The notes under the pieces are model-generated. The model made no database searches. It had not been told where the DNA came from and saw only the letters and a list, made by a program, of their open reading frames with translations. A stretch of 64,000 nt of DNA from Isurus oxyrinchus (taxonomy: Eukaryota), in assembly GCA_026770705.1 (NCBI GenBank), contig JANJGN010000009.1:163804001-163868000 (forward strand), given 5' to 3'. How positions within the stretch are numbered: position 1 is the stretch's first letter; every line of letters begins with the position of its first letter. The position numbers and the translations under genes are program-made. Shown here in pieces: positions 26,688-62,760 of this stretch.

Positions 26688-28331
26688 ATGGCAGAGTCAG
26701 CAACAGCCTCAGAGAAGGCGGCAACTGAGGAGGACACGGCAATGGCTGAAGTGGTGGCACAGAAATGGAGGTGGAGGCTGCAGGTCTGGCAATACGGCAG
26801 AGGAGGAGTTGGCAAGGGCAGCGGAAGCAGAGGTGGTGGTGGAGTTGGCAATAGCAGTGGAGTTGACTGAGGAAGAGGCAAGAGTGGAGGAGGTTGAGGT
26901 GGAGGTGATGACTGAGGAGGCTGAGGTGGAGTCATTGGCTGAGGAGGCTGAGGTGGAGTCAGTGACTGAGGAGGTTGAGGTGGAGGCAGTGACTGAGAAG
27001 GTTGAGGTGGAGTCATTGGCTGAGGAGGCTGAGGTGGAGGTGGTGACTGAGGAGGTTGAGGTGGAGGCAGTGACTGAGGACGTTGAGGTGGAGGCAGTGA
27101 CTGAGGAGGTTGAGGTGGAGGCAGTGACTGAGTAGGTTGAGGTGGAGGCAGTGACTGAGGAGGTTGAGGTGGAGTCAGTGACTGAGAAGGTTGAGGTGGA
27201 GTCATTGGCTGAGGAGGTTGAGGTGGAGGTGGTGACAGAGGAGGTTGAGGTGGAGGCAGTGACTGAGGACGTTGAGGTGGAGGCAGTGACTGAGGAGGTT
27301 GAGGTGGAGGCAGTGACTGAGTAAGTTGAGGTGGAGGCAGTGACTGAGGAGGCTGAGGTGGAGGCAGTGACTGAGGAGGCTGAGGTGGAGGTGGTGACTG
27401 AGGAGGCTGAGGTGGAGGCAGTGACTGAGGAGGCTGAGGTGGAGGTGGTTGCCGAGGCGATGGAGGTAGTGAATGTCGGGGTGGAGGAGGAGACATCAGC
27501 AGCGGCAGCAGCAGAGACAGTGACTGAGGCTGAGGAGGGGGAGGCAGCGGCTGTGACAGTGACAGAGGGAGAAGCAGCGAAGGCGGCAGCAGCAAAGGCT
27601 GAGGCCACAGTGAGGGAGGCTGTGGAGAGGGAGGTGGAGGTGGGGCAGAGGCAGCGAGGAGACGGTACGAGACCAGGAGCAGCAACAAAACCTGCCTTGT
27701 GGTTTGTGAGGCTCAGGGCAATGGCGTCTGTGAGTTGATATCTTCCATGTGTCATGTGTGTGTCTCCGAGTCAGCGCACCGGACCACACTGCTTCTGCCC
27801 GATTAGGGCGCTTCAGTGGAGTCCGACACCAGTCCAGTGTCACCCAGCTCCCATTCCCGAGGACAGGTGATGGAACCTGCCCAGTGCCAGGATGAGCTGC
27901 TTGGTAAGATCGGGAGGTGGGAAGTAGAGAAGGCAGCCGACCAGGAAAAGCTGGAGGATATCTCCAGGATTACTGACTGTCTCCAAGAAGAAACTCTTGT
28001 AGCCTTCAGGCAGGGTATATGTATGTTTATATAGCTGCAATTTAAAGTTACCTGCCACATCCCTTTTAACACTTTCTAATGCAGCATCGCTCTGATCAGA
28101 ATCAGATTTATTGGGGTTGTACAAATGTCTCCCCAGCCTCTGATATAACAATAAAAAGCTGCTTTTTCCTTTCCAGTTGCAGTAAGAGGACTGTCCCAGC
28201 CTCTCAATGTGACAGGGCAGCCCAGGACTATGTCTCTCAGTGCAACACCCAGGAACACACACAGTGCAGCCCCCACATTGATTGTTGCAGTTGGTGGAGG
28301 GGCGGAAAGTGTGCATGTGGGAAGATATTGA
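26688..28331 (+). pseudogene. Possible decayed gene for an acidic E/A/V/T-repeat protein (paralogue at ~54667-56210)
   Basis: Long EVEAVTEEA frame with in-frame stops, and a plausible downstream intron (G|gtatat at 28015 to ttttcctttccag| at 28176). Strand is ambiguous because the minus-strand S/T and P/Q frames are also open. Confidence 0.3.
26896..27462 (+). repeat. 27-bp G-rich minisatellite, 21 units (GAGGTGGAGGCAGTGACTGAGGAGGCT)
   Basis: Units counted directly; includes a 189-bp higher-order duplication. Confidence 0.95.
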
Positions 28332-29399
28332 TTCTCACAACATTTCCATGGCTTTAACTCAGATTATTCTGAGTGTTTTGCCTGGAGTCAATTACAAGCA
28401 GCGTAGACAATGTCTGTGTTTTAATTGTGTCTGGCTGTCCTCGTTTTTCACAAGAAAATATGTGCAGATTTTATTCAACTTTTATTCTGAGTGTTTTTTC
28501 TGAGTTTATGGAGATGTAACCTCATATCAATTTAATTCAGAGCACCTTCATACACTCGCACACACCCACACACACACACAAATATCCTCAATCACCCACA
28601 CACCCACACACATACACACACACACAAACATGGGAATGCGTGATTTCAGTTCATTATTGACATTCTTGATCCTCATTTGGCCCTGCAATATATAAGTGCA
28701 CCAGCAATAAACACCAACAGATAAACGGGAAAAGTAACCAGTTTGGACGAGTACTACTTACATCACCAGTATTTCTGGCTGTTCCTACTGGGCGACCGGT
28801 AATACCGGTGATATTGACAGTTTTACTGGTCCTACCTAGTTCAGAACTGGACTTCATTTACCAGTTTGGAATTAGGATCTACTGGTGCCGGTATTACAGG
28901 GACTTCCTTCTGGGAATGACAATAAATGAATGTGCTTCTCAACTCACTGCATTGTCAACCTGAGGTCCATTGCTTTAGACATGTAAGAGTGAAGACTTTA
29001 CCCATGTGGAACAGATTGCCTTTTGAGGCCTGAGTTTCTTTCCGGTTTCAATGGTTGAAAACGTTTTGTTGTGTACAGAATGGTGAGGGTGGATGTTCAA
29101 TCCCAAATGAACATTGTTCAGTTTCAGCGCAATTCATTAACTCCACAACTAATTTAACAATTGATGACCAACGTAAATAGAGTTAAACTGAAAAAAATGT
29201 TTTCAAAGCTGTTGCACCTTGTCATGTAGATGGTGGCTTGAAACCACAAGAAAAATGTGCTGCTATTGTTAGGATTGAGGTGTGACAGAAACCTGTGGAT
29301 GTACAACAGGTGTTAGTCACAAAATGAAGGGTTGTGTTTGCAAATGGGAGAAGAAGAAGAATTGCATTGTTACAGGGCAAACACGTTGGCAGTAAGTGT

Positions 29400-32300
29400 T
29401 TGAAGGTTAAGCAGCTTCAGCTCAGAACAGACACTGCGACACATCAGGGAGAAGGAAAGTTACCTGGATTCTTTGTGCCAGGAGGCAATCACAGCTCTTA
29501 GGACAGGATGAGTGTGACTGCGAGTGAGGCAGGTAAAGGGACCCAGAGGGCAGGAGCGCAGGAGCCTCAGCCTTTACAATTGTTCTACAGGTCTGAAGTT
29601 TTCTCAGCTTGTTTGGACAAGAGCAGCGGGTGAGCAGGGGGGATGAGCGAACTGACCATGGCACCATGGCACAGGAAGCCATCCAAGTGGGGGGAGCAAA
29701 CAGGAATGTAGCGGTAGTGAGGGATAGTATAGTCAGAGGGATTGACACCGTTCTCTGCAGCAAACAGCGTGAGTCCACACGACCATGTTGCCTGCCCAGT
29801 GCCAGGGTGTGGATGTCGGCTCAGGGCTAGGGAGGAACTTGCATTGGGAGGGGGAGCACCCAGTCATCGTGGTCCATGTAAGCACCAACGACATAGGCAG
29901 CACAGAGAAGGTGGTTCTGCACAATCAGTGTGAGGAACAAGGCACCAGATTAAGAAGCAGAACCACAAAGGTCATAACCGATGGATTATTACCTGAGCCA
30001 TGTGCAAATTGCCACAGGACAAATCAGACTCAGGAGGTGAATGTGGCTCAAAGGCTGGTGTGGAAGAAGTGGGTTCTGGTTTGTAGGGCACAACAACCAG
30101 TACTGGGGAAAGTGGGATCTGTACCATTGGGATGGTCTACACCTGAACCGTGCAGGGACCAGTTTTCTTGCAAGCCACGTAACTAGGGAAGTAGAGAGGG
30201 TTTTAAACTAAATAGTGGACAACAGATCATATTCGGGATAATGTTGTAATTCAATGAGCAGAGACAAGTCAAAAGATAAAGGTATTATTAGGAAAGATGA
30301 AAAACAGACACTGACAAGGGGGTATAGTGAGAACAAATCTAACAGTAAATCAACAGATGAAACTGAAGGTTATAAAAAGCATAAAAGGATAAAACTAAAA
30401 GCTCTGTATCTGAATGCACGTAGCATTCAAAACAAAACAGATGAACTGAGAGCGCACATAGAAATCAATAATTATAATTTGATAGCCAATACGGAGACTT
30501 GGCTGCAGGAGGACATGGATTGGGATGTGAATATTGAAGGGTACAGAGTACTTAGGAAGGATAGGAAGCGAGGAAAAGGTGTAGCGGTGGCTCTGTTAGT
30601 GAATGATGGTATTAGTACAAGAGAGGAAGAAATAATTGGAGCTTGTCAGAAAGTCATGGTGATAATCATGGGGGACTTTAATTTACATATAGACTGGAAA
30701 AGTCAGATGGGCAAAGATAGCCTAGCTGAGGAGTACATTGAATGTTTTCAAGATAGTTTCTGAGAACGGCATGTTCTGGATTCAAACAGACAGCAGGCTA
30801 TACTAGACCTGCTATTGTGCAATGAGATGGGAGGAATTAACGATCTCACCATGAAGATGCCCCTAGGAAATAGTGACCATAATAGGATGAATTTTACATT
30901 CAGTTTGTAGGAGAGAGGAGTGGGTCTGAGTCTAAGGCGGGGATTTTTGGGCCCTGCTGCTGGTGGGACTCGCTGTGGGGGAGGCAGTTCCCCAGCCAGA
31001 AGCCCCACTGACTTGCGACAGGACAGGAAGGGCCGGCGAGCGGGTGTGGAAAATCCCACTGTAAGTTTTTAAACTTTAATAAGTGCAATTATAAGGACAT
31101 GAAAGCTGGGATGGCTAAAGTGAATTGGCAAAATAGGTTAAGGGACAGGTCAATCGAGATGCAATGGCTCATATTTGAGGGGATATTTCAGAATGCACAT
31201 TCCAACGAGTAAGAAAAAGTCTAAGTGACGGACACACCATCCGTGGTTAACTTGAATGTTTAAACATAGTATCAAACTCAAAGGAAAAGCTTATAATTCT
31301 GCAAAGAGAGGTGGCAGGTCAGAAGATTGGACAGAATAAAAGGAACAGCAAAGAATGACTAAAAGACTAATAAGAAGGGAAGATTTAGTTTATGAGAGAA
31401 AGGTAGCCAGGAATATAACAACAGATAGGAAGAGTTTTTATAAGTACGTAAAAAAGAAAAGAGTGAACAAAGTGTGTGCTGGTCCTATAGAAGGTGAGCC
31501 TGGAGAATTGATAATGGAAAACAAGGAGATGGCAGATGAATTGAACAGGCATTTTGCACTAGTCATATTGAAAATGTTAGAAGCTATTATTAAAGAAATT
31601 ATAGCAGGACACTTGGATAAGGTCATGGTCATCAGGCAGAATCAACATGGTTTTGTGAAAGGGAAATCTGTTCAACCAGTTTTTTGGAGTTCTTTGAGGA
31701 AGTAACATGTGCTGTGGAGAAAGGGGATCTGGTGGATGTACTGTACTGAGGTTTCTAGAAGGCGTTTCATAAGTTATTGTGGAAAATAAAAGCTCATGGT
31801 ATAGGGGGTCACATACTGGTATGGATAGAAAATTGTCTGGCTAACAAGAAACAGAGAGTAGGCATGAATGAGTCTTTTTTAGTTTGGCAAGATATAAGAG
31901 TGTTGTGGCACAGGGATCATTGCTGGGACCTCAACAGTTTGCACTTAATATCAACGACTTGGATGAAGGGTTTGAAGGGATGGTTTCTGAATTTGCTGAT
32001 GACACAAAGATAGGTAGAAAGTAAGTTGTGAGGGGGACATAAGGAGGCTACAAAAAGATATAGATAGGTTTAGACAGTGGGCACTGATCTGGAAAATGGA
32101 GTATAATGTGGGAAAATGTAAAATTGTCCATTTTGGCAGGAAGAGTAAAAGAGAAGCATGTTATCTTAATGGTGAGAGATTGCAGAGCTCTGAGGTGCAG
32201 AGGGATCTGGCTGTCCTTGTGCATGAATCACAAAAGGTTAGTATGGAGATACCGCAAGTAATTAGGAAAGCTGATAGAATGATTTCATTTATTGTAAGGG

Positions 32301-32750
32301 AGATTGAATTCAAAAGTAGGGAAGTTATTCTTCATCTGCATAGGGCACGAGTGAGACTACATTTGGAGGACTCTGTACAGTATTGGTCACAATATTTAAG
32401 GAAGGATGAAATGCATTGGAAGAAGCTCAGAGAAAGTTTACCAGGCTAATACCAGGAATGGGTGGATTGTCTAATGAGGAAAAGTTGGACAGACTAGGCT
32501 TCTATCTGCTGGAGTTTAGAAGAGTAAGAAGCGAATTGATTGAAACATATAAGTTCCTGAGGAGACTTGACAGGGTGAGTGCAGAGAGGATGTTTCCTCT
32601 TGTGGGAAAATGAGGGGTCACCCATTTAGAACACAGATTAGGTGATTTTTTTGAACTCAGAGGCTCGTGAGTCTTTGGAAATCTCTTCCTGAAAAGGTGG
32701 TGAAGGGGAGGCTTCGAATATTTTTAAGGTAGAGGTGGAGTGGTACAAAT
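29400..32750 (+). mobile_element. Degenerate CR1 LINE spanning ORF1 (esterase) and ORF2 (endonuclease/RT) with internal deletions
   Basis: DSIVRGID...CCLP..RV...VVHVSTNDIG (ORF1); LYLNARSIQNK...ETWLQ...MGDFN (endonuclease); NQHGFVKGKS and LEDSVQYWS (RT). Many frameshifts. Confidence 0.88.
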
Positions 32751-32881
32751 CAGCAGTAACTTGTGGCAATTCACGATTCATTGGCTTTTTTCTTCATCGT
32801 CAAAAGTTGCTGATGATTTTCACATTAAAAGAGGTGTTTGTTGTTCATACCCCATTATATTTTCAGTAAGTTCTAGCCCAT

Positions 32882-33470
32882 TGTTATAGAGTTGATTTTC
32901 CAGGCAACTTTTCTGGGTGGAAACATTGAACTTTATTTACAAGACAGCTGCAGCAGCTACATGTGTGTATCTAACTCTATAACTAAAGGACAACTCCCCG
33001 TGGAGGTTCCCCATGCTGCAAATTGGTTGGTTTACACAGATCATGTTCTCTTACAACAAAGGATTATTCTTAATGTTACAGTCCTACCTTGATCAAAACT
33101 ATAATTATTACATTCCTCACCCTTTACCTTTTCTGTACATTTGTATTTACAAGGATGTTGATCTCATGACATTAAAATACTTCCACAGGTCATGAAATTA
33201 TAAGCTTGGTCTTTCAAGTGGTTCCCTGTGGAACGTTTTAGTTTCATGACCTCAGATTCTCTGACAGGAACCACAGTCTCTGCAATAACATGAGGTACCT
33301 CCTTAGACACAGGCAGATCAGTGTCGTCCACTCCGACAGAGACATCGGGCATGACTATCCTTGGCTGTACAATTTTAACAGGAACCACAGGTTCAACAAT
33401 GGCTACAGGTGGAAAATTATTTTGTGCGGTATCTCCATTCTTTTTAAATCAATCAGGAGCTTACCGGTGA
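32882..33470 (-). mobile_element. Gypsy LTR retrotransposon relic: pol C-terminus, PPT and 3' LTR (32882-33112)
   Basis: TGT...ACA LTR ends with an adjacent polypurine tract. The minus-strand peptide ends KLKRST(W)IRKPLERPSL* in the 61707 copy, typical of Gypsy pol tails. Confidence 0.6.
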
Positions 33471-33779
33471 TCTACAAAGATTAGTAAATAAAACCAAAAT
33501 ATTAAGAAATCTCTGTATTCAATTTGACAACTAAATTTCAGAAATGAAAAAAATACCTCTGTTCCTGTGGGGTTTGTGGAAATTGGGACGGGGTTCCTGT
33601 TTAAATCACTTCACAATTCATTATAAATACTAGTTCAGCTCATCATTATCCACATGTTCTAACTTTTTAACATTCTTGTTTTCAGGATTTTATATCCTTT
33701 CAATGAAAATTAGTTTAGTTCTTTTGTTAAATATAACTGACAGAAATTCAAGTTCTCAGGGGTCAGATTTCATCAGCTG

Positions 33780-33830
33780 CCTTAATGTGGTTTCATGACC
33801 TGGCTTCCTGCTATCTTCTTCCTCATTTAA
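33780..33830 (+). promoter_or_regulatory. Putative myeloid-type proximal promoter of gene B (RUNX, ETS and PU.1-like sites)
   Basis: TGTGGTTT at 33786-33793, CTTCCTG at 33804-33810 and CTTCCTCATTT at 33818-33828, 100-145 bp upstream of the ATG. Motif match only. Confidence 0.5.
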
Positions 33831-33928
33831 ATTCCTTGTATCATTTATATTAGACACTTATTTCGATGTGAGAAACAAGAGCTGAGTGTCTGGAAACAAG
33901 TTCTGCCCTGATCTTTGTGAACAAAACA

Positions 33929-33965
33929 ATGTGGATTTTGATTCTCCTCATTAGTTCTCTGCCCG
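33929..33965 (+). CDS. Gene B signal-peptide exon
   Basis: acaATGTGG...CCCG|gtgagt, reading MWILILLISSLP. Phase 1 joins the V exon to give VSGALW. Identical coding copy at 62761. Confidence 0.88.
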
Positions 33966-36900
33966 GTGAGTGACAGCCAGAGCTGGATGTTCCGATATTC
34001 TGAGTTGGTTTAACTCTCGTGCGCTGGTTATACAGGAGATGTTTAAATATTTGGAGACATGCAAAGGCACAAGAGAGGTCTTGGGCACAGTGGGTAGTGT
34101 CTCTGTACCTGAGCCAGAAGCTCTGTGTTTGAGTCCCACTTCTGTTCTTGTTGAGAATGGAAGGCGCGTTCTAACCAGGACCAACAGATTGATTATCAAC
34201 CTGAAAATCTACCAACAGACCGAAGGCTGGTGGTAAGAGGGTTTGAGATCCGAGTCCAACATGATTGATGTGGAGTGGTGCCGCTCATTCTGTTGTCTCC
34301 GGAGGTTAGTGACCTGTTCCAGGGAAAACAAGCTTTGGAAAGCAAAAGTAAACATGTGCTTTGACTGCCGCATCCGTCTCTAGATGTGGGAAGTCTCCTA
34401 AGTCTAAAGGCACAAAATAGTCAGCAAAACCAAATGAGTAATAATTGTGAAGTATTTTATTACCCTGTGAATTAACTATCACAACATGGGAATAGTTAAC
34501 AAATAAACTGAACTGCATTATTAATTATGAATGATAAATAAAGGAGAATTAAATTTTCAGAAAGCTATGCAAGCAACATTTTGAAAATGAAAACCTTTTT
34601 TAATTGGTAATTTTCAATATAATCTGATGTCCAGTATAGACTGAAGACTGCAGCGGTAATAATCCCACAAATAAAACATGTCCCAAGTTTGTAAATATTT
34701 CTGTTTTTTAAAGTACAGTTGATGAAATATTGTGTTATGAGGCTCTCTCAGTGACACTGTTCCTCACTGGTAGATGGTTGGTCTACATCACTCTTCTCAT
34801 AAGTAGCCTTTTCTTGTTCATTCTTTAACTTTAAGAAACTAGATTTTGCTCATCACTCAGTATTGCCACCTCTCCATCATTTCGATGAATCTATTTTATA
34901 ACACACAATGTTAAACTCCCAGCCCCATCTGCTCTTAACCACCTCCCCAAAATATTTTGTGCCTCTAGCTGATCAATTTTATGCAGAATACTTGATGTAC
35001 TTATGGACAGGAAACTGAATCATGTTTCTGTCTGTTTGGCAATCTTCTTCTTTTCAATCCTTCCTCTTTCTGATCTGATCTCTTTCCCATTCCCTTTACA
35101 TCTGTAACTTTCCCTGTATCTTTTTCCTTTCCTTCATTTCTCTCTAGCCATTTAATTATTTTCAATCTCTCTTTTGTTATTTTAGTGCAAACTCTTTCCC
35201 CACAGCATGAGTTTCTCTCCCAGCAAGGCCATTGGTCTCATGAACGTTCAAGTCAAGGCATCCAAATCCCTACCTCAGGAATCCATCCATACTGTAAGGC
35301 CACCTATCACACAACCTCGCAAACTTTCAAGACCTTCAAATCCTACCTTTGGACATCCCTAACTCATTCAAGATCTGAACAACCCCTCCTGCAAGGACAC
35401 AACCCTACCCCGCACCCCACCCACCTCAGATCAGAGCAGGGAACTGTCGGCTCCTGTGACCACCTCCACACTGCTCCCCAGCCGACTGCAAATCAGGCCT
35501 GTCAATCAGACTGGTTTCTGGCTGTGGAACCTCCTGATGATGTCATACGCAGTCTAGGGTGAAACCCCAAAATATGAGGCAGAACCCCAATTTCCAGATT
35601 CCCTCACTCTACTAGCCCCTGCCAATATGTCAAGAAAATGCCCCAATTATCTCACGAGTATATCATTGTCTGAGACATGCTTTGGAACCACAGTGAGGCT
35701 CTGATAAGTGTCTATATGAATGATTACTCTCATCACAAACTTGATGGAATTTAACTCATTAAAATGCATCTGTTTGAATTAAGCAGTTATTTCCTGTTCA
35801 ATTCCTGAAATGTTGTCTCCTCAGTTTCAGGTGCATTGTGGGCAAAAGACAGAGTAACAGGAGTTGTGGGAAGAGCGATCACAATAGAATGTCACTATGA
35901 TGCACGGTACAAGTCACATATAAAATATTGGTGTCGCGGCTGGACTCGCCAGTGTAATGTTGTAGCATCGACAAATTGGCGAAATGGAAGAATATCGGTC
36001 ACAGATAACAAGTCACAAGGATTATTTATTGTTACTATGGAGGATCTTCACTCAGGAGATACAGGATGGTACAGCTGTGCTATTGAAGTAACTGGCCACG
36101 ATCCAATGTTTAATGTAAAGCTACAAATATCTTACGGTACATTTCTTACTGTTTTTCTTTATTACTCTCGACTGAAATGTCTGCTCAATGTTTTATCTGG
36201 GAGGAAACATGACAGCTCTGATATCCCGAGGCTCCACAGCAATGCAGAGTCTTAAAGGTAAAGGGCAGTGGTCGGGAAATCCAACTCATGTTACCCAAAC
36301 CCAATTCAAGGCCTGTCCAACATGTCAGAATTGAACTTTACAAGTGAACTAAACGGAAATTGAGAAGTTGTTTTGATGGTAAAAGAAGCCTCTTTATTAA
36401 TTGTTGAGACATTGGGCTGGATATTCAGCCTCAAAGCGGGTAGGGGGAATTCGGAAAATTCCCCGCTCGGCCTTGGAAGAAAGTGCCCACAAAGGTGGGA
36501 TTCCCATTGCTGGGAGCTGTGCCCGGGCTGCAGTCTGGCCAGCCACACCAGGAAGAAATGCAGAGGCAGCCACAGGGGCTGCCGGCTGCGGAGACGGGCT
36601 GTTTAAAAGGCCCCTCCTTAATGCCCTTGGACTTTGTAACAGCTAAACTCAAAACACAAAGGCCCTTCACCCCTCACCCCTCACAGCCCACAAAGGGGGT
36701 GGATGTGAGGGGAAAATTTGTCATGAGGTGGCTTGGAGGTGGGTGGAAGTGTACAGCTTGAAGTCAGGAGCATGAGGGGGTATAAGGCGTGGGTATAGGG
36801 ATAGAGGGGGAACGAAGGGCCAAGCGGGTTGGATGGGGGTGTGACTTGACATAGCGGGCATGAGATGCACCTTTTGAACTTAGCTGTTAAAAGATCCCCT

Positions 36901-39900
36901 CATGCAGACCAGTGTTTACAGCTCCTCTGAGGGGCTTTGGACTACGACTCAATCAAAACCTGGCCCGAGTCCTTGAAAATTGCAGAGGAGTCGGACGTCA
37001 CTTTGGTCTGAAGGCTGCACAAAGCACAGGGTAGAGGCCCTGGACTAAGACACCTGCCTTTATCTTGTATAGAAAGTGTTCACATGTGAGTGACATGAAC
37101 ATTGCTCATCAAAACAAGGAGCGATAGGCAGGGAGACATTCTTTGGAGTTTATTGACAATAATGAACAGTATGTACAAGTGATTAAAACCCGTGCCCAGG
37201 ATGTGAAACTACTTCTCCTCAACCACGCGGTGTCTGGCGGCACTGTCAAGACCTTCTGTGCTCGGTGGGTGACCACGGGTGTTGCGGTCCTTTATCCAGC
37301 CTCTTAATCACATTTTGGTTTGATGTTGTAAGTGTCCTTTAAATCATGTCTTTGGTTTTGCAGTGACCCTAACGTAGGGGCTGCGTTTTATATTATCCCT
37401 CATTTTGTTAATTTAGTTTATTGGGTTGGCTTTAAAAGAGCTACATCTTCTCAACTTTCCTAATCCTCCCGCTACATCTTGGTGCTCCGCAGACATCCAC
37501 AGTGGAGGTAAAGACAGTCTGCTGACTGCTATGCTCTGTCTGTGATAACTTTGGCGGGCACCCTCTGGAGGCCTGAGGCCTGGAGGGCCCCGGCTTCCTT
37601 TCGAGGTCCTACTGTGTGGCATTAGCACCCTCCTTGTCCTGTGGACTGGGAGCTGTCAAGGTCACAGTAAGAGGGGAGTTACCAGGATGAATGGCCCGGA
37701 GGGTACACATGTTGATCCTTCTCGCTATGGGTACCCAATGGCCATTGGCTGAATCCTTGAGGAGCAGGTGTAGCTGGAGTGAGATCGAGCTGCCTGCACC
37801 CCTCTCGCATACACACTGTCAGGGGCCAACTATACATCAGCAATGGAGTTCAGCCCCACAGCAGTGTAGGAACGATGCCCTGGACCAACGTCTCCATGGC
37901 AGCTGCCATCCTACCAGTGTTGACCTCGGTGCAGTGACATGCCGGCGCTATCACCTCAGAGTGCAGGCGGACGGACTCCTCCATTGTGCCTTGCAATCTG
38001 AGGGGTGCAGCAGATATCCCTTCCTGATGTTCCCGCGTTGGCCTTTCCAGCTCCAGCAACTGTGACATGACCAAATCCAGAAACGCGTCACCTGACTCGA
38101 CCTCAGCAAATTTATGGCCTCCAGCTGCCCACTGAGTGCCGGACACCTGGGAAGCCCCTGCCGCTGCCAGCTGTGGATCAGGCAGTGCAATTTGCTCACC
38201 AGCTGTGACCCTGAGTCTACTCTAAAGCTAGATCTCACCGAGGGGTGTGCCTCTGCGCTGGTGGAGGGTGTGGGTGAGGGCAGTGATGGTACAGCAAGGA
38301 GGGTCCCTCCAGGTTCCTCTTCAGAGATTTCTTTGGGGATTACTTGGTGTCCCTGGGTCTCCATCGGCTGTTACCCAGATGTGCGTGTGGAAGCAAGTGG
38401 AAATATTTTGTGCATGGCAGTGGCCTGTGAAACAGGACACATCACTCACAGCATGGTTGTCTGATGGATGTTGCACTGCTGGACCCTCACTTGGCTGAGC
38501 ACCGCCGACCTCACCGTCAGCACAGGATTGGTCCAGGCCGTTGCCGGCCAGCTGGATGGCTCTGTTTACAAAGTACTAGTACTGTTCAGGAACATGATGT
38601 TCATATTTTCATACATGTCGCTGAATTTGTCAGTCACATTTACGCCTCTATTATCAACCAAAGAGCGGGATTGTCCCCGATTTGCACTAAGTGCGTTAGT
38701 GGGCGGGGGAATTGATGTTTTACCCACCGGCCACAATGGGGGGTTTTCAGGCCGCATCGTCCCAAACCCAACGCATTAGTTATGCATTCCCGGGAAACAT
38801 ACCATTTCCATGGTGAGTGGGATCTCATTCACCCCAAACACCATCATTTCACTGCTTCATCAGGCCCAGCACCATATGTAAAGTCCAGCCTCGTGCACAC
38901 ATCTCAGTGTTTCCAACCCAGGACCACTGCAGGGAAGATATCCCCAAGAGGCAAAAAGACTGTAGCTCCCAGGTTTAGTGAGCTGTCACTGCAACACATT
39001 GTGTACACTGTGGGGGCCCTGCTGTGATGTCCTCTACTCCCACTCTGGCTGCAGTATGGACAGCGCTGTGACCAACCAGGCCTGGGAGGCGGGGGCAGCG
39101 GTGGTATACCCACTGAATTTTATTAAGTTAACCCTCACTGTCAGATAATGTAGACAGTATGAAAAGTGTGGATGAGAAACCCTTAGAAACTGTCCTTGCT
39201 GGATGGAAACAAATACTGGAGAGATTGGAAATTTCTAAATGAAATGAGTGGATGCCTGATTGTTTTATAGAATGAAATGCAGGTACAACAAATTTTTTAG
39301 GGATCTGAGGAGAGGGCTATCTTGCAATATGATGAAGTATAGAATATTGAGATTTTTAATTCAATTTGTTTCACACTTTTTGGTCACCATATTAACTGAA
39401 AATTTTATTTAAATGAGAGAAGGTCATCATCTAATCGTTTATTAATTGTGTTTAATTGTATGCAGTGGTGGCATTAATTGGTGATTCACTTGTGCACCTA
39501 TAAACAGATGCAGACTGAAACTGCGGGTGGTGGATTTGATTAGATTCACACAGTAAACAGCACTTTAAAACAGTTCCACATGTCTTAACCTATCTAACCT
39601 CAGAGCTAATCTTTCTCTTTTCCGTTCAGCAACGAACACTGTAGATTTAAAAAGCTATAGAAGTCCAATAATTTTACCACACAGTGCTTTCACATTGGGG
39701 TGTCCACTGACAGAAACTGTGTCTTCAGATCTGGGCCTTGTTCACACTGTCTCCTGGGAGTTCTGACCAGCTACCCTGCTGTCTTCAGGGAGATCTGGCC
39801 AACCATCCTGCTGTGTTCTGGGAGATCTAAGCAGCTACCCCCTCACATAGGCTTCAGTATTCCCTTAAATGTGTTTCTTCTCTTTCATCTCTCTTTGTCG

Positions 39901-42900
39901 TACCCAGTCTGTTCAGAAATGCTTTTATCCCAGGATTGATTAATTCAATATTTACTTTAATTCTTAGACTTGTAAAAACAAACTTACCCTATCTTTATGT
40001 CACTTCATGACACCTTTTTACAACCTGCATATATCCCCCTTTGAACTAAAACAACTTAATTCAAACTATTCCTGTTATTGCTTCATGTACAAAAATGTTG
40101 AAGTTCTCTTTTGTTCATTAACATATCAAAACCACTTCTTACTGTTGACTTTTGACCATATCCACTGATGAGGCAGTCCACGTTATGGAACCATAACCTT
40201 AAATCTGGAGATAGGCTCGTCAGGGATGTCAGGAAGCACTTCTTCACGCAAAGTATAGCGGAAATCAGGAACACTCTCCTCAAAAAAGCTCTTGAGCTCA
40301 GTTGAAAATTTCAAAACTGATTGACAGATTTTATCTGGTAGCAATATTCGGGTTATGGGACCCCGGTAGGTAAATGGACAGAAGATACTGGTCAGTTGGG
40401 ATTTAATTGAATTGTGGAACAGGCTGAAGGGGCTGCATGTCCAAATCCCTTTTCCATGTTCTGGAGCCCCAGTTAATTTTTCAGTGGTCTGGGCCTTGTG
40501 AGTAACAATGTGCTGTGAAACAAGCTCACAAACAGTTAGCATTTCAAAGAGACACTTTCCAATCACCAGGCAAACTGTGACCTGTGTTGTTTCAGAGTAC
40601 AGTTTGTGACAGTGAAAGCAGTGAAGGCCTGCCAAACCTCACTAAAAATGTTGGTGAAATTGTCACTTTTCTCTGGCTAATCCCTTGACCAAAGAGGGAA
40701 TTTTAATTCCCCTCCCCCATCCTGCATCGTGTTGAAGCATGATGGGATTTGCTGGATCCAGAACCTTCTCCAGCACGGCTTGTGATTCAGGAGACACACG
40801 AAAGCTTCACCCCCACCCCCAGGCAAATGTTTTATACAATTTCTCCCTCCCCATGATTGGCCAATCCTGCCCCAAGCAGCAAAGTCACCCTGACTCCCTC
40901 CTCGCTGCTGTGCTCCGAGGACAAATTCCCACCAATTTCTCCCATGTCCAGTTCCCAAACCCAAATTTAACATCCACCCCATAGAGTGGTAGATGTGTTG
41001 GTGAGATTCCAACATGACAGAGCCAGGCTGAGATGAAGTGCAAAGTTTGAAGAGTATTTGATTATTAAATGTTCAGTATCTGAATGTTTCTTTCTTTCCA
41101 ACAGAACCCGTGTCTGTTCCTGTGCTTAGATTTTCATCACCGCTAAATGTCTCATGTTCTGGGGGTTCAGTGTCCGTCTCCTGTCAGTCTGTCCAGGGAT
41201 CCCTTCCCATTCAGTACACATGGTATGAAAAGACTCTGTCTGAAGATTCAAAGATCTCTGACACCAAGAAACTGGATCTACATTGTCAATCCTTCAAACA
41301 GCAACATCATCAATATTACTGCACAGCCTCAAATAATCAGGGAGAAAAATCCAGTGACACTGTCACTGTTAACTTAACACTCATGAATGTAACAACGAAA
41401 AGCTGCAGTTATGTGATACAAATTGGAAACATTGGTAAGTGTTACTTTGTACAAACAATGTGACGAATGAATTATTTAAATTCATGTCTATCCAAACTGG
41501 TCACTGTTTCAGTTCCTTCAGTCAATCTGAGAAATTGCAACTGGCCAAATTCACTCTCTCTGGTTCCTCAAACATTCTGAACAAGGTCACTAAGTTGCAT
41601 TTTTCATGAAAAATGGACAGGATCAGAAAATATCCCCAAAACATGCAAAAATATTGCAGAATCTCCAACAAACCCATCGAATCAAAATAGCATTTGATTG
41701 ACAGAGCTTTCATAAAGCAATTTGTCTATTTCCAGCAGATGGAATTGTGAAATGCAACCTCCAACTGTTGTGTCCTAGTTTGGGAAGGATATCACTGATA
41801 GAATAGAGAAGAATTGAATTAAAATGAACCCTTGGATGAGAGGTTTTAGTCATGAGGAAAGTATCATCACAACTGAGGTGAATGACCAGCTGGAGGACGT
41901 GGAAATTGTTAGAAATTTGGATAAGGTAACTCTAACTATTTCCACTAGTCAGTGAGTCAGCAACAAGAGAACATTAACTTTAAAATTATCACTAAAAGGA
42001 CAAAGGGAGAAATTTGGAGAATTTTATTGATGCAAACTGTTTTTAGGACATGGAATGCCCAACTGAAATAAGTTTACAAACAAATTTAATAATAGATTTT
42101 AAAAGGGAAACAAATGTATGAGGGTGTGGGAAAAGGACAATGAAATGGAATTAAATGAGGAGATCATTCAGAGAACCAGCATTCGAGTGATGGGCTGAAT
42201 TCCCTCCCCATGTTGTAAAAATTCCATCATTCAAGACAAAATCTCAAATTATCCTGTATAAAAAATTAACTATTCCTTCCCCATGAAACAATGACCCTGG
42301 TTCTGAAACGAGGAGGACTTTAGCCTATTTGAATGTAGCGGTTCAATTTTCTGCAGAGTGGGTGCAGCATGTTCACCGAGAAACACCAACATGGGCACAA
42401 AACAAAGAGAATCACATTTTCACCTGAGCAGCAGGAGACAGGAATTTACATATGCAAATATATTGACTCTGGTCATGTGGTCTCTTGCCTCAGTTGTCAG
42501 GGAAGAAGGGTGGAATTTTACACCCCCATTGCGCCAGGGACTGGGCTGTAAAATGCAGCCAGCCATTCTAAACTCCATGCACTCCAGCAGGACCATAAAA
42601 TCCCACTGTCACAAGGCTCAGACCAAAGGCTGTCAGCAGCAGGTAGAAATTACACCTGTAAACTGTGTTTGTACTGGAGTTGTCAGCAGGGACTCAGTTG
42701 CACTCTGACATTTGATGCCAGTCTTTTGTAGTTACAAGTTCCCCTTAAGAGTTAAAATTCAGGCTGATACCACTGTCCAGCACTGAGGTAGTGCTATACT
42801 GGTGGTGGTGCTGCTGTGTAGATGAGGTATTAAACTGAGGATCCACATCCCCCTTAGGTAGATGTAAACAATTCCAGGGTATTATTCACAGAATAGGGAA

Positions 42901-45312
42901 GTTCTCCTGGTGTCCTTGAAGCCTTTATTCCTCAACCAATACACACAAATTGGGAGCAGGAGCAGGCCACTTGGTCTTTTGAGCCTGTTAATGTCACTAC
43001 AAAACAGATCATCTAGTGAATGTTTTACTGATGTTTGTGGGGCTTTATTGTGTAGGAATGAACTTCCACGTTTCCCAACATTAAAACTTTGGCTTTACTT
43101 CAAAAAAGTACTTCATAGGCTCTGAAGCACTTTGGAATATCCCAAGTTGTGAAAGGTGATGAATCAGCACAACTTGTTTCTTACTTTTTGAAACAAACCA
43201 TTTATTAAAATACATCTGAACCAATTATCTGAGTGCAAACTGCAGGGGGGGGAGGGGGAGGGAGGAGCCAGTCCCAGCAGCAAGGTGGTCATTATAATTA
43301 AATGGTCAGAAAATCACTGGCAGGTTTGAGACATTCATGGTCAGTGGGTGAAGATTCTCATCTTTACTGCAAGCTCAGAAAACTGCCCCCAAAGTGCAGA
43401 AAGTGACCATTGCCAGTATTAGGATGTGACTGTTTAATGTGTTCACATGAAATTCATGTCAAGAATGTGTATCTCTGGATTGCAGTCCACCAACTTGAGC
43501 CCTTACCATGCCCACTAGTAACTCTGTCCCACCAACTCTCAGATATAGGAAAGAAAGTGGAATTACCAGTAAAGATAGATCACCACCAAGTATCTGCGAC
43601 CTCTCCACTTGTGACCAGAGAGGGGTAAATTACACAGAAATCAATTCTACCAGCCAGGCTTTTCCTCAATTAATGAGGTTCCATTTGACAATGATGCTCT
43701 CTCAGTTGACTACAAGTGAAAATGAGGTGAATCTGAATGTTATTCCCTTGTGTCAACAGGACCTGAGTATTGTTGTGAAGCTTGTACAAGAGTATCACCA
43801 ACTACATATTTGACAAGTACAGATATAATTTCCACTACCAATCGAGCCACAACTTCAGATCCCGAAAATGCTGAAAGGTACAATGTTCTCATGGATTGGC
43901 ATTGCTTCCATATGTGAGAGATACAATTGGCCAAAGGAGTGAAAGTTGTTCATTAATTGTAAAGTAGCTCATCAGAATGGAAATGGTGGCTGGGTTTATA
44001 TCATGCTGTTGTGTTAGCTTCTTAATGAGGGTGCATTTTTCTGTTGGAAAATACAAGCAAGGAGTGAGCTTTTCCATTGTGTTGCCGCTCAGATGGTGTT
44101 TTTTGCCTTATTCACCTTGATTACTTCACCGCTAAGGTAACCTCACAGTGTGTGAGGAGTTGTACTTGTCAAACTTACCTTGCTGCTGTCTACACTGACA
44201 GAGTGGTTGTATTTGGGCGGATGAAAAGGAAGAATTAGCGTGATATATCTGCACATCCCTTGGTTTCACTAATGAGAGACATCTTGCAACTCTGGTCCCG
44301 TTTCCATATGATTAGCCTGAGCTGTCGACAATAAGTAGCAGAAATTGTAGTCCGATGTAAACACTCAGGAACCGGGTCTTTGAAGTTACAATGGTGATAA
44401 AGAGAAAACGCCAACTAAATGTCAAACAGAAAGAGGGACAGTTGGAAATGGACAGCAGGTATGTCCGCAGCTGTGGAGAAAATAAACACGTTCATGGTTT
44501 GGGTGCAGACACTTCTTCAGAATTCTAGTCCACACACGAAGCGAAGCAGGTCCACTCACCCCACAGATCCCAACTGAGCTGCTGAATGTTTCCAGAATCT
44601 TCTGTTTTCCATTCATATTTCTAGCACATGCAGTGCTCTTACTTTTATCCAGATTATTGTCAATGATTTAAAAAGTATTGAAAGTCTAGGGTCTGAATTT
44701 TCCGCTCGGCGGGGGTGGGGGTGGGGTAGAGCGGGAGCGAGCACGGGCAGCTGTGGACCCCATCGCCATCCACCATCGGGTTTTTGACGCCATTTTGCGC
44801 GGGCGGCCAATTTAGGCCATCCCAGCGTATTTCCCGGCTCCCGAGGATAGCGGCAGTGGGCGAGAAGCGGGGGGTGTGCACAGACAACCGGGTCCAATGG
44901 TGACCCAGCGGCCTGTTTAAATGAAGGCCTGGCAGCCTGTTCCAGCTGCTCACAATGGCCAGTGCAAAGAATTTTCACTTACAATTCCGCTTCGCCTTAC
45001 AGTTAGACATTATGGACATGCTAAAGAAATTTGCTTCGTTTGATTTTTATCTAATGATCATGAAGTTGATAAGTAGAACTTTAGTTGATTCTTTCAGCTA
45101 AAGTCCCTTGTCTACTTTATGTTGCTGCAAAAAATTACAGTGTAAAGCGGAGAGTCATGTTTCAAAAATGAAACAGTCTCATTTCATTTAAATGGTTTGA
45201 TATTTCTTCTCTTTTGCTCAGTTACATTATCTGGGATGTGATACGCTGGGTGCTCTTTACTCTCCTGGTGATTTGTGCTGTTTCGGGCACATGGTGTACG
45301 AGAAAATCTAAG
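33929..45312 (+). CDS. Gene B: activating-type CD300/pIgR-like Ig receptor; exons 33929-33965, 35825-36136, 41105-41434, 43760-43877, 45222-45312 (terminal exon uncertain)
   Basis: Five GT-AG exons total 888 nt = 296 aa in one frame: MWILILLISSLPVSGALW, V-Ig, C2-Ig, stalk, then a TM with Asp/Arg. Confidence 0.88.
35825..36136 (+). CDS. Gene B V-set Ig exon
   Basis: Paralogue of 433-747, 3 nt shorter, with the same splice sites and Cys/Trp pattern. Confidence 0.93.
41105..41434 (+). CDS. Gene B second Ig exon (C2-type)
   Basis: Paralogue of 6720-7049; 330 nt with intact splice sites. Confidence 0.92.
43760..43877 (+). CDS. Gene B stalk exon
   Basis: Reads GPEYCCEACTRVSPTTYLTSTDIISTTNRATTSDPENAE; 118 nt, phase 1-2. 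Confidence 0.85.
44689..44970. mobile_element. Truncated GC-rich Harbinger-type MITE at the cassette 3' breakpoint
   Basis: Starts GGGTCTGAATTTTCCG (same TIR class), is CpG-rich and is absent from copy 1. Confidence 0.6.
45222..45312 (+). CDS. Gene B transmembrane exon with Asp and Arg (activating type)
   Basis: Acceptor ttttgctcag|T and donor AAG|gtgaga. Reads SYIIWDVIRWVLFTLLVICAVSGTWCTRKSK; phase 2 matches the stalk exon. Confidence 0.85.
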
Positions 45313-49091: not shown

Positions 49092-49133
49092 TTCCAGACA
49101 CTCAACGGATCAGATCCTCAGAGCTTGACCTAA
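49092..49133 (+). CDS. Candidate short terminal exon of gene B (FQTLNGSDPQSLT*)
   Basis: Acceptor gattttcag| in phase 0, in sequence with no recognised repeat, and AATAAA at 49241-49246. No independent support. Confidence 0.3.
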   Translation, partial: FQTLNGSDPQSLT

Positions 49134-49467
49134 GAGGGAAAATGAAGATTCCGGGGTTACATCTACATTGATGGAAATTTTCATCCTGACAAAATATTCA
49201 TTATTCGTCGAGCTTTGAATTTCTTTTAATAATTCTACAGAATAAAAATCGATTTTCTCATCAAATAATTTTGACCATTAAATTAGTGGAGCAATCAAAA
49301 AGCAAAATGATGGCTGCGAACTTCAATTTGTATATCTACATCCTGACAATAATTTCTCTGTTTGCTGCCTTAGTGTCTACACAACTTTATTTCTTGTTTT
49401 AAGACTATCAAATTCTTTAAGAAATAAGCAACTTGAAAGGTTCATTTATTGGAAACCAATCGCTTCA

Positions 49468-54430: not shown

Positions 54431-54816
54431 CTGGATTCTACTGGACTCATCAGAAATCCAGTAGGGATTCCAGTTGCTTCAGCTAAATTGAGCTGGAACC
54501 ACAGCACCTGTTCCCAATTGGACTAGGAGTCAGAGAGGGACAATGCAAGAACTGGGGCATAAACTCTCATTCAGTGGGTGGTGCAGTCTGAGGAGGACCT
54601 GAGAAGGCTTCGAGAGAAAGGTGGGAAAGTGGGAGAAAGGGAGGCAGAGACAGAAGCATCCTTACATTGTCCCCAGAGTTGGTCACTCTGGCAGAATCAG
54701 CATCAGCCTCAGGGAAGGAGGCAACAGTGGAGGAGACGACAGTGGCGGAGGTGGAGGTGGCGATAGCAGCGGAACTGAAGGTTGCAGTGAAGTCAGCAAC
54801 AACAGTGGAGAAGGAT

Positions 54817-55329
54817 GAGGTGGAGCTGGTGACTGAGGAGGCTGAGGTGGAGGCAGTGACTGAGGAGGCTGAGGTGGACGTGGTGACTGAGGAGGCTGAG
54901 GTGGAGGCAGTGACTGAGGAGGCTGAGGTGGACGTGGTGACTGAGGAGGCTGAGGTGGAGGCAGTGACTGAGTAGGTTGAGGTGGAGGCAGTGACTGAGG
55001 AGGCTGAGGTGGAGGCAGTGACTGAGGAGGCTGAGGTGGAGGCAGTGACTGAGGAGGCTGAGGTGGAGGCAGTGACTGAGGAGGTTGAGGTAGAGGTGGT
55101 GACTGAGGAGGCTGAGGTGGAGGCAGTGACTGAGGAGGCTGAAGTGGAGGCAGTGACTGAGGAGGCTGAGGTGGAGGCAGTGGCTGAGGAGGCTGAGGTG
55201 GAGGCAGTGACTGAGGAGGCTGAGATGGAGGCAGTGACTGAGGAGGCTGAGGTGGAGGTGGTGCCTGAGGAGGCTGAGGTGGAGGCCGTGACTGAGGAGG
55301 CTGAGGTGGAGGTGGTTGCCGAGGCGATG
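54817..55329 (+). repeat. 27-bp G-rich minisatellite, 19 units
   Basis: Same unit as the 26896 array. Confidence 0.95.
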
Positions 55330-56244: not shown

Positions 56245-56347
56245 GAGTTCTGTTGAAGGGTCATGAGGACTCGAAACTTCAACTTTGCTCTTCTCCGCCG
56301 ATGCTGACAGACCTGCTGAGTTTTTCCACTTATTTCTGTTTTTGTTT
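56245..56347 (+). mobile_element. ~100-bp Penelope-like insertion specific to cassette copy 3
   Basis: Absent at the paralogous site ~28365; matches 15515-15616. Confidence 0.75.
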
Positions 56348-56529
56348 TATTCTGAATGTTTTGTCTGGAGTCAATTACAAGCAGCGTAGACAATGTCTGT
56401 GTTTTAATTGTGTCTGGCTGTCCTCGTTTTTCACAATAAAATTTGCCAGGCTTTTACTCAACTTTTATTCTGAGTGTTTTTTCTGAGTTTATGGAGATAT
56501 AACCTCATATTCTGCTGAAATGCACTTTA

Positions 56530-57350: not shown

Positions 57351-57387
<37 letters not shown>

Positions 57388-57465
57388 GCACACACAAACA
57401 TAAGCACACACACTAATATCCTCAATCACCCACACACCCACACACATACACACACACACAAACAT
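56875..57465 (+). repeat. Compound (CA)n / AATATCCTCAATCACC minisatellite, ~8 units
   Basis: Units visible directly; only one unit at the paralogous 28550-28630. Confidence 0.9.
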
Positions 57466-62665: not shown

Positions 62666-62760
62666 CCTTGTATCATTTATATTAGACACTTACTTCGATG
62701 TGAGAAACAAGAGCTGAGTGTCTGGAAACAAGTTCTGTCCTGATCTTTGTGAACAAAACG

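Follow-up and report, generated by a model that had tools for sequence, protein, structure and literature searches.

Neighbouring shark genes of MDIR type with near-identical ectodomain regions and tails of two old lineages, probably maintained by recurrent exchange

Genes and repeats at the locus

The window (the whole 64,000-nt stretch of Isurus oxyrinchus DNA that was analysed) holds a gene predicted to be of inhibitory type, in copy 1 of a shared block, and a gene predicted to be of activating type, in copy 2, followed by a third copy. The features, with their evidence in brackets, are:

1..10300, + strand: copy 1 of the block, intron 1 to post-stalk intron of the inhibitory-type gene (self-BLAST and alignment)
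433..747, + strand: copy 1 V exon, phase 1-1 (Pfam V-set E=5e-10; splice sites)
5549..6552, + strand: 1004-bp segment in copy 1, missing from copy 2 (covered by organism B contigs)
6720..7049, + strand: copy 1 C2-type Ig exon (Pfam Ig_2/Ig_3 E ~6e-6, just short of curated cut-offs)
9375..9492, + strand: copy 1 stalk exon, phase 1-2
10989..11077, + strand: uncharged TM exon, phase 2-1 (RNA-type contig X19 record 13)
13166..13218, + strand: first cytoplasmic exon (X19 record 13 has 52 unplaced letters between the TM exon and the last one)
13849..14160, + strand: last cytoplasmic exon, four Tyr motifs (X19 records 13 and 14)
26689..26886, unstranded: diverged patches left of the minisatellite, 73-83% identity
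26887..27445, unstranded: 27-bp minisatellite of copy 2, 20.7 units, containing the left edge of high identity
29420..32750, + strand: decayed CR1-type LINE, present in copies 2 and 3 (limits approximate)
32760..33480, - strand: segment previously read as a Gypsy relic, identity unconfirmed
33481..33928, + strand: copy 2 proximal upstream region, presumed promoter and 5' UTR
33929..33965, + strand: copy 2 leader exon (splice sites, RNA-type contig)
35825..36136, + strand: copy 2 V exon (Pfam V-set E=2e-9; RNA-type contig)
41105..41434, + strand: copy 2 C2-type Ig exon (Pfam, splice sites, RNA-type contig)
43760..43877, + strand: copy 2 stalk exon (splice sites)
44686..44960, + strand: GC-rich repeat, its terminus (44689) at the right homology edge (right limit approximate)
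45222..45312, + strand: Arg TM exon of activating type, phase 2-0, Arg near the N-terminal end (X19 record 11, X20 record 15)
49092..49258, + strand: last exon of the activating-type gene, 13 codons and stop (to 49133), then 3' UTR with AATAAA at 49241
54808..64000, + strand: copy 3, with minisatellite, N gap, CR1-type relic, leader exon and start of intron 1
56530..56874: copy 3 N gap
62761..62797, + strand: copy 3 leader exon

The leader (33929), V, C2 and stalk exons proposed in an earlier, sequence-only reading were all found with canonical splice sites, and both TM exons do accept phase 2, as the stalk donor leaves phase 2 and each TM exon is then in frame. By motif match only, the tail of the copy 1 gene carries two canonical ITIMs, one ITSM-like and one near-ITIM motif. 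Its TM exon is spliced to this tail in X19 record 13, and the splice from stalk to TM involves 23 unplaced letters that were not displayed letter by letter; the TM and tail are identical to Carcharodon at 122 of 130 residues. All six exons of the copy 2 gene are joined exactly as modelled in RNA-type contig X20 record 15, which begins at 33870. The tail of this gene is short and lacks Tyr, and its TM shares 30 of 31 residues with Cetorhinus. Both tail types occur among the contigs of run X19, a bulk sample, the RNA status of X19 and X20 being the tool's guess with no recorded RNA run. Further degenerate V, C2 or TM exons were not found in the spacers by tblastn, and copy 1 has no significant match to an activating TM exon beyond its acceptor-like site at 10422, where a relic was looked for.

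The minisatellite belongs to the block as proposed, with 27-bp units in copy 2 and in copy 3 (18.7 units). Long minus-strand frames over it are a consequence of the repeat unit. The LINE, which differs by 2.4% between copies 2 and 3, has Pfam endonuclease matches (E=0.008 and 0.001) that are weak and below the curated cut-off; the proposed CR1 label otherwise draws on the resemblance of its motifs. The proposed Gypsy relic gained nothing from Pfam or Atlas, neither of which returned a match for 32760-33480, and that label stays a matter of resemblance. The minus-strand frame at 27843-28334 was rejected as an Ig domain or gene, having no Pfam match and a best Atlas score of 0.77. Copies 2 and 3 were compared over seven segments; the one with the highest divergence (5.4%) is the 446 bp ahead of the ATG.

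Extent and edges of the shared block

In self-BLAST of the 64,000-nt window, 1-5550 and 6553-10300 match 35392-44685 at 97.9% and 96.7% identity, and 26941-35159 matches 54808-64000 at 94-96%. Over the aligned sites, copy 1 differs from copy 2 at 232 of 9289 (2.5%), the common part being the downstream 9.3 kb only, and copy 3 differs from copy 2 at 294 of 8200 (3.6%), the common part being the upstream 8.2 kb only. The sequence-only reading had seen three copies of one 17.8-kb block; the repeat is real, but copies 1 and 3 each represent one part of it. They do not overlap, intron 1 being the start of copy 1 and also the end of copy 3, and no position in the window is covered by three copies. 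The promoter is common to copies 2 and 3 only, the tail of copy 3 lying outside the window, as do the promoter and 5' end of copy 1. Hence the two tails demonstrably share 9.3 kb only, and the sharing of a promoter between opposite tails is something we infer rather than see, with gene models P0009 and P0002 speaking for it indirectly. The 1004-bp segment at 5549-6552 has no second copy in the window, and the difference is likely a deletion in copy 2; both forms of this indel are present in DNA contig run X1.

On the right, homology breaks off sharply at 10300/44685, leaving 0.5-0.7 kb to the TM exon in each copy, in agreement with the abrupt end first noted there. The remaining intron pieces align no better than shuffles (p=0.14; p=0.74 without the repeat), and homology does not resume beyond the 44689 repeat, which would have counted against the sequence-only reading. 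DNA contig X1 record 7 reads across 10300 (10257-10593, 2 other letters). An organism B contig follows 44656-44868, with 30 letters left of the edge, one below the bridging rule, and so was uncounted. The terminal motif of the repeat also occurs at 20223 and 50253, and contigs pile up in bin 44704-45227. The left edge is not the sharp break at 26896 that had been described: high identity starts within the minisatellite, and patches of lower identity extend back to 26689/54689, those of copy 2 being matched by a white-shark gene model at 31 of 33 residues.

Divergence between the copies

Copies 1 and 2 are identical at 98/105 residues of the V domain (seven substitutions and one codon differ), 104/110 of the C2 domain, against 96/108 between C2 and Carcharodon, and 28/38 of the stalk. 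In the stalk 10 of 38-39 residues differ, and the 12 of 118 nt that differ in its exon are all non-synonymous. Positive selection was not significant over the whole ectodomain (26 N vs 6 S, p=0.53), the excess being in the stalk only. The two TM exons of the window had been called unrelated, and the profile-profile probability is indeed only 17.5% (reversed control 5.8%); however, 9 of 29 residues are identical and the similarity of the exon DNA exceeds that of codon shuffles (p=0.008), such that the exons may have a remote common origin.

Mismatches between copies 1 and 2 are overdispersed in the introns (p=0.0003; 0.002 without CpG), with a single mismatch in the 600 bp at 942-1541 (p=0.001; 0.04 without CpG), and divergence is 1.8-2.0% at 748-8500 vs 3.3-4.4% around the stalk. 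In upstream pieces, 56 of 1933 sites separate organism B from the window and 30 separate copies 1 and 2, whereas in post-stalk pieces the corresponding counts are 6 of 550 and 20 (interaction p=0.0002); these pieces are the longest listed (5 upstream, 2 post-stalk), and any paralogue could be their source. The block is thus a mosaic of tracts of different age, whose middle likely postdates the split from a relative and whose post-stalk end likely predates it. Local variation in mutation rate could add to the patchiness.

Ectodomain and tail phylogenies

The original description of the MDIRs is reportedly that of Cannon et al. in 2006. The genes in the window are MDIR-family (pIgR/CD300-like) receptors, in which V, C2 and stalk precede either an ITIM-type tail or an Arg TM with a short tail. 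They have V-type and C2-type Ig ectodomains like those of the skate MDIRs, the copy 2 V domain being 59% identical to skate MDIR3 and 55% to MDIR5. The accessible text of PMC3031540 describes skate MDIR2, MDIR3 and MDIR5. MDIR3 has an uncharged TM and ITIM tail, MDIR5 an Arg TM and short tail, and they fall in the same two TM clades and have similar V and C2 domain types, but the genes in the window differ in having only V-C2-stalk. The architectures of 143 relatives indicate a multigene family of variable domain number with activating and inhibitory forms.

The comparison set consists mostly of automated gene models, several of them fused, clustered at 90% identity. The TM tree has two clades (100/100), with sharks and batoids in each and skate MDIRs in both; its TM labels were assigned by similarity, and hence its single type change arises by construction. 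Arg-type units have tails of at most 60 aa in 46 of 49 cases, and all 49 of their terminal TMs contain Arg-Trp; a long tail with an ITIM-like motif is present in 58 of 62 units of uncharged type. The ectodomain tree shows the opposite pattern, rather than the congruence that would have counted against exchange. Built from 90 units, with 34 of 124 TM-bearing units left out and P0002 u2 labelled inhibitory by inference, it has 27 changes of tail type vs a shuffled mean of 28.7 (58/200 shuffles at or below), and 42 changes of species vs 72.7 (0/200). The predicted outcome, ectodomains grouping by species and TM types forming clades that span sharks and rays, was therefore obtained. W1 and W2 are sisters (100/98), and a single clade of activating ectodomains was rejected (p-AU 2e-5, 64-row tree), although the log-likelihood gap of that test (1605) may be overstated by the single constrained search.

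Both types occur in 18 species. In 12 of these, the two genes of the best opposite-tail pair lie nearer to each other than either does to a gene of its own type from a different species; this strict test fails in Cetorhinus, Chiloscyllium plagiosum, Hemitrygon, Mobula hypostoma, Rostroraja and Scyliorhinus canicula (6/18). The lamniform paralogues P0053/P0126 and P0027/P0130 look orthologous across species by eye, so homogenisation is not family-wide.

Discussion

The best reading of this locus is an old paired-receptor array, not a one-off cassette insertion. At a probability of roughly 0.8, we hold that these are two neighbouring genes of an MDIR array, with ectodomain regions 97.5% identical and TM-tail exons of two old lineages, whose likeness has likely been kept by recurrent gene conversion or unequal crossover. 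They show these features of paired receptors: similar neighbouring ectodomains, an ITIM tail on one, and a charged TM with a short tail on the other. Firstly, exchange tracts would extend over any homologous sequence, introns and dead repeats among it. Secondly, they would end where homology ends, in the minisatellite on the left and at the repeat terminus on the right. Thirdly, exchanges overwriting a tail would be blocked by non-homology or purged by selection. As known families predict, the ITIM tail would recruit SHP-type phosphatases, the Arg TM would pair with an ITAM adaptor of FcR-gamma/CD3-zeta type, and the activating copy would serve as counter-receptor or decoy towards the ligands of its inhibitory partner. 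The adaptor is uncertain, as the available part of PMC4016189 reports that no FcR-gamma homologue was found in the shark genomes screened in 2014; no report of shark FCER1G or CD247 was found in the literature searched, which included few subscription journals.

An unlikely alternative route to such pairs is the repeated formation of chimaeras de novo, in which unequal crossover puts a fresh promoter and ectodomain duplicate before the resident tail of each lineage, as in FCGR2C, with older combinations lost and little true conversion. It predicts the same tree pattern, and would suit the very long common block with its dead repeats, the activating-then-inhibitory neighbours in fused models of Cetorhinus, Pristiophorus, Stegostoma and Mobula hypostoma, and the left flank of copy 2 type, which precedes an activating tail here and an inhibitory tail in white-shark model P0009. 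However, the evidence for the P0009 flank is drawn from pseudo-exons in an automated model, which could skip genes. Furthermore, the patchiness at 0.6-1.5 kb within one pair, with a post-stalk end that looks older than the middle, means that several exchange points per block would be needed.

The sequence-only reading had allowed for duplication or conversion of a cassette. Its further step, that expression control and ligand specificity are handed on together, goes beyond what the window shows: the promoter of the inhibitory-type gene is outside it, the stretch ahead of the ATG is the most diverged segment between copies 2 and 3, and the V domains and stalks of copies 1 and 2 differ. Conversion agrees with ectodomains that group by species and tails that group by type; one-off placement on a new module is disfavoured, since the tails predate the shark-ray split, the same stalk type precedes an Arg TM in a basking-shark model and an uncharged TM in a white-shark model, and the ages along the block are patchy. 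A single recent duplication or transposition, bringing a 17.8-kb cassette to an unrelated TM and tail that had been newly recruited, possibly at the 44689 repeat, is hence very improbable and already largely refuted. The right edge is sharp and coincides with a repeat terminus, and the phase-2 introns are compatible, but both tails lie behind family ectodomains throughout sharks and rays, the block is not of one age, and in the basking-shark model a stalk of this type is followed by the same Arg TM, along with a piece orthologous to the downstream intron (28/29 aa); the organism B contig across the edge also argues against it, though with only those 30 letters on the left. Least credible of all is that the copies are assembly artefacts, either haplotypes that were left uncollapsed or a faulty join at the N gap, which may apply to copy 3 alone, where the 345-N scaffold gap adjoins a CA-rich repeat and the tail is not visible, but is opposed by spacers and tails that are unrelated between copies, by both tail types being spliced in RNA-type contigs from one sample, and by the two indel forms and the contig across 10300 in run X1, itself possibly the window's own source and so not independent evidence.

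Recurrent exchange may have gone further, in an alternating array where ~18-kb promoter-plus-ectodomain blocks have passed continuously between two unchanging tail modules from before sharks and rays diverged, with whole tails changing places behind one and the same upstream flank from species to species, and perhaps among living haplotypes, and with positive selection driving the stalk exon apart; we advance this tentatively, as possible but somewhat doubtful. Were it true, the exchange would be the oldest and longest-tract homogenisation of paired receptors known to us. The same pattern as in mammals, present in 12 of the 18 sharks and rays compared and with two tail lineages that predate their split, would push the strategy to the base of jawed vertebrates, and would give the pathogen-decoy explanation many independent replicates on which to be tested. 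Ectodomain homogenisation also explains why shark gene sets contain fused or mis-annotated versions of these loci, and why ectodomain trees cannot assign orthology; concerted evolution likewise blurs one-to-one orthology with any named MDIR gene.

The principle is not new, as conversion-matched paired receptors are already documented in mammals (Siglec, CD300, CEACAM, FCGR), although the literature searched, with few subscription journals, contained no statement on concerted evolution or conversion of shark MDIRs. The SIGLEC pairs are of the lysine/DAP12 type. In the accessible text of PMC5701461, the inhibitory and activating neighbours SIGLEC11 and SIGLEC16 are homogenised in each primate lineage; for SIGLEC11/16 and SIGLEC5/14 the converted region includes upstream sequence, able to change expression, with a 5' boundary at a simple repeat (PMC5701461, PMC4042635), and SIGLEC14/5 fusion swaps a promoter (PMC4042635). 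These pairs, as described in those portions, belong to another Ig family and have tracts of ~2-3 kb over the first domains only, tens of millions of years old, whereas the shark tracts span at least 9.3 kb (up to ~17.8 kb inferred), with the whole ectodomain and long introns, at shark-ray depth.

The promoter and ectodomain on another tail, as in the sequence-only reading, have a counterpart in the FCGR2B/FCGR2C/FCGR2A group: unequal crossover joined the promoter and first six exons of an inhibitory receptor to an activating tail, with shared promoter haplotypes and a 24.5-kb near-identical block (PMC6786274, in the part available). That was, on this account, one event in a duplication of 82 kb, and the tail itself carries the ITAM, whereas adaptor-type activation is predicted in the shark genes and exchange recurs in many lineages. 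The ligand-binding exons of CEACAM1 and ITAM-bearing CEACAMs cluster by species, and in dog the similar region spans the first intron, leader and ~1 kb upstream (PMC2832619, in the part available); this is another family, with similarity there mostly in the N-domain exon only. The CD300A and CD300C ectodomains are homogenised within primate lineages while the tails diverge, according to the accessible portion of PMC12447643; they belong to a related V-domain family, but have a single V domain and Glu as the charged residue. Relatives of the shark genes carry the source names 'CMRF35-like' and 'pIgR-like'.

A transcribed paired-receptor locus with two large repeats

The locus is a real, transcribed pair of activating-type and inhibitory-type genes of the MDIR family (elasmobranch pIgR/CD300-like receptors), in which three stretches need to be distinguished:

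1-10300: copy 1, part of an inhibitory-type gene
26896-44685: copy 2, the block of a complete activating-type gene
54808-64000: copy 3, a leader and the start of intron 1

The sequence-only reading had proposed three copies of one 17.8-kb promoter-plus-ectodomain cassette, only copy 2 being complete in the window. Two large repeats do exist by self-comparison: 1-10300 matches 35392-44685 apart from a 1004-bp indel and 232 mismatches (2.5% of 9289 aligned sites), and 26941-35159 matches 54808-64000 with 294 mismatches over 8200 (3.6%, a figure inflated by tandem repeats). However, copy 1 corresponds to the downstream half of copy 2 alone and copy 3 to its upstream half alone, leaving no base of the window in triplicate, and the 17.8-kb cassette is therefore a composite. 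The stretch directly seen with both tail types measures 9.3 kb and runs from intron 1 into the intron after the stalk; copies 2 and 3 have in common 8.2 kb further upstream, presumed promoter included, copy 3 having its tail past the window end. The earlier observation is partly confirmed, and its interpretation partly supported.

Copy 2 comprises leader, V, C2, stalk, transmembrane (TM) and last exons encoding 309 aa; its TM carries an Arg close to the N-terminal end, and its tail is short and free of Tyr. In copy 1, V, C2, stalk and TM exons are followed by two cytoplasmic exons; the TM is uncharged, and the tail has two matches to the canonical ITIM, an ITSM-like motif and a near-ITIM. Both TM exons accept phase 2, as had been claimed, and their end phases are 1 (copy 1) and 0 (copy 2). 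In a presumed-RNA run (X20), a 1117-nt contig tracks all six copy 2 exons and matches the predicted junctions. Another run of the same sample (X19) has a contig in which the inhibitory TM is linked to the last exon across 52 letters; a further 23 letters, preceding the TM, are unplaced. For copy 1, the predicted junction of stalk and TM agrees with reading frame, splice sites and relatives.

Among named proteins, the nearest are those of Carcharodon carcharias (90%) and Cetorhinus maximus (86%), in keeping with a lamniform shark, and skate MDIR2, MDIR3 and MDIR5 are among the matches; MDIRs are described as multigene activating and inhibitory receptors akin to CD300, TREM and pIgR (PMC3031540). 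The sole chimaera match, Callorhinchus P0125, has an uncharged TM and an ITIM tail, with no chimaera Arg-type form among the matches; the activating tail may be restricted to elasmobranchs, or else have been missed in chimaera. Public models of four species (P0002, P0005, P0007 and P0011) fuse an activating unit to a following inhibitory unit, suggesting that this order is conserved and mis-annotation frequent.

Ectodomains follow species and tails follow type

There is good evidence for a long-running, lineage-by-lineage homogenisation across elasmobranchs. The 143 relatives, each standing for a 90% cluster, were for the most part automated models, some of them fused, and were cut into units at each TM. 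The TM tree (73 rows) has two clades (100/100), each with sharks and batoids; TM labels were set by similarity, making the two-way split circular, but not the taxon range or the link to tails. Arg-type TMs preceded a tail of at most 60 aa in 46 of 49 cases, and uncharged TMs a long tail with an ITIM-like motif in 58 of 62. The membrane-proximal V+C2 tree took in 90 of 124 units; 34 were left out because no V-C2 immediately preceded the TM. On this tree, tail type changed 27 times, against 28.7 with shuffled labels, whereas species changed 42 times against 72.7, and 0 of 200 shuffles gave so few changes. The same pattern emerged from a 64-row tree (tail type 21 against 21.3; species 25 against 49), with the AU test rejecting one clade for all activating ectodomains (p-AU 2e-5). 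Hence the pattern proposed earlier, of ectodomains grouping by species and TM types forming old cross-species clades, was found.

The two window ectodomains are sisters (100/98). In 12 of the 18 species with both types, the members of the best opposite-tail pair were closer to each other than any same-type gene elsewhere was to either; under this strict definition the other six had no such pair. Judged from sequence, the tails track orthologues, with the inhibitory tail matching white shark at 122/130 aa and the activating TM matching basking shark at 30/31, while the window TMs match each other at 9/29. Two lamniform paralogue pairs look orthologous across species by eye, and so some paralogues stay outside homogenisation.

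The phenomenon is of a known kind, in a known family. SIGLEC11/16 are reported to have undergone conversion in every primate examined, upstream sequence included, the 5' limit lying at a simple repeat (PMC5701461), the same pattern being described for CD300A/C (PMC12447643) and CEACAM pairs (PMC2832619); FCGR2C is likewise described as the FCGR2B promoter and first six exons on the FCGR2A tail (PMC6786274). In the literature searched, which covered subscription journals thinly, no report of concerted evolution of shark or ray MDIRs was found.

Edges and ages within the block

The right edge of homology is sharp at 10300/44685. The abrupt end noted from sequence alone held, as alignment of the remaining intron pieces (688 and 536 bp) does not exceed that of shuffled sequence (p=0.14; p=0.74 without a GC-rich repeat). 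An X1 DNA contig bridges the junction at 10300, although X1 may be the window's own source. The first unshared bases of copy 2, at 44689, are a repeat terminus that recurs at 20223 and 50253. The left edge is blurred: high identity begins within a 27-bp minisatellite (20.7 and 18.7 units), and patches of 73-83% extend left to 26689/54689.

Copies 1 and 2 show over-dispersed intron mismatches (p=0.0003; p=0.002 with CpG sites removed), amounting to 1.8-2.0% across 748-8500, 3.3-4.4% around the stalk and 1 in 600 bp directly after the V exon. A second organism, B, is represented by contigs about 3.4% away from tail-specific window DNA. In five upstream B pieces, 56 of 1933 sites differ from the window, against 30 between copies 1 and 2; in two post-stalk pieces the counts are 6 of 550 against 20 (interaction p=0.0002). 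These are only the longest of the pieces listed, and any paralogue may be their source. At face value, the block middle would have been homogenised after the B split, and the right end before it.

Pseudo-exons of a white-shark gene model match 26685-26783 (31/33 aa), 27807-27950 and intron sequence around 34155-34221, and lie 5' of an inhibitory gene; the upstream block is therefore old, and precedes an inhibitory gene in the model of a relative. A basking-shark model runs from the activating TM through an intron piece (47284-47370; 28/29 aa) to a second gene, which closes with an out-of-frame reading of the inhibitory first cytoplasmic exon. From this order, copy 3 is likely inhibitory.

Proposed mechanism and incomplete hand-over

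The two tail modules are old, and the neighbouring ectodomain blocks would undergo recurrent, homology-driven exchange, by conversion or unequal crossover, with tracts that bring introns and dead repeats along and stop where homology stops, 0.5-0.7 kb short of the TM exons. If known families are a guide, the ITIM form would recruit phosphatases and the Arg form would pair with an ITAM adaptor, a charged-TM logic stated for a CD300 member (PMC5974347). The identity of this adaptor is uncertain, since a 2014 account describes FcR-gamma as not found in shark genomes (PMC4016189).

The earlier suggestion was that the cassette hands over ligand specificity and expression control together. The V (7 substitutions and one codon), C2 (6 residues) and stalk differ between copies 1 and 2. 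All 12 differences among the 118 nt of the stalk (43760-43877 against 9375-9492) are non-synonymous (p=0.034 against synonymous sites; 0.0002 against flanking intron), and the activating copy is without two of six N-glycosylation sequons. On these predicted proteins, hand-over of specificity is incomplete. As to expression control, copies 2 and 3 are 5.4% apart over the 446 bp 5' of the ATG; SIGLEC5 and SIGLEC14 are reported to respond oppositely to LPS despite 5' conversion (PMC4042635).

Additional observations

The copy 1 stalk matches the white-shark inhibitory gene at 32/38 aa and copy 2 at 28/38; the copy 2 stalk has one extra Cys, and the two basking-shark stalks are 36/37 identical to one another. 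The activating-type transcript contig (X20 record 15) shares copy 1's additional codon in an otherwise copy 2-like V (35824-36135; 2 other letters) and has a C2 (41104-41433) unlike either copy (8 and 13 letters); it may be a chimeric contig, a mosaic allele or a further paralogue. X19 has another V form, without the extra codon. An organism B joint in run X5 (43318-45221) skips the stalk exon and ends at the activating TM acceptor, and may represent a stalk-less paralogue or a repeat artefact.

Among the dead elements described earlier, the identity of the Gypsy relic was not confirmed by searches, and the LINE relic gave weak endonuclease matches only, its CR1 label being putative. A minisatellite-bearing element (26689-28330 and 54689-56200) has long, Ser/Thr/Ala-rich minus-strand open frames of 353 and 356 aa, adjoined by a 164-aa frame; none matched Pfam or Atlas, and the element may be a transposon or a dead exon. 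An acceptor-like polypyrimidine-AG lies at 10413-10432 in the post-boundary intron of copy 1, with a GT 10 nt further on; no support was found for an exon or TM relic there.

The low-copy 1004-bp segment missing from copy 2 (5549-6552) has 2-bp microhomology at its ends and no exon found within it; organism B contigs cover it too, and both indel states are present in X1, possibly the window's own source. Across 33700-49400, the depth of long X1 contigs is mostly 360-410 in the shared block, about twice the 190-230 of contigs in the activating-tail region, though contig depth is no measure of copy number. The V-C2 intron contains a very high-copy GC-rich element (36998-39105 and 1609-3717), an older copy of which (69-84%) lies at 51089-53275, in the spacer after the activating gene.
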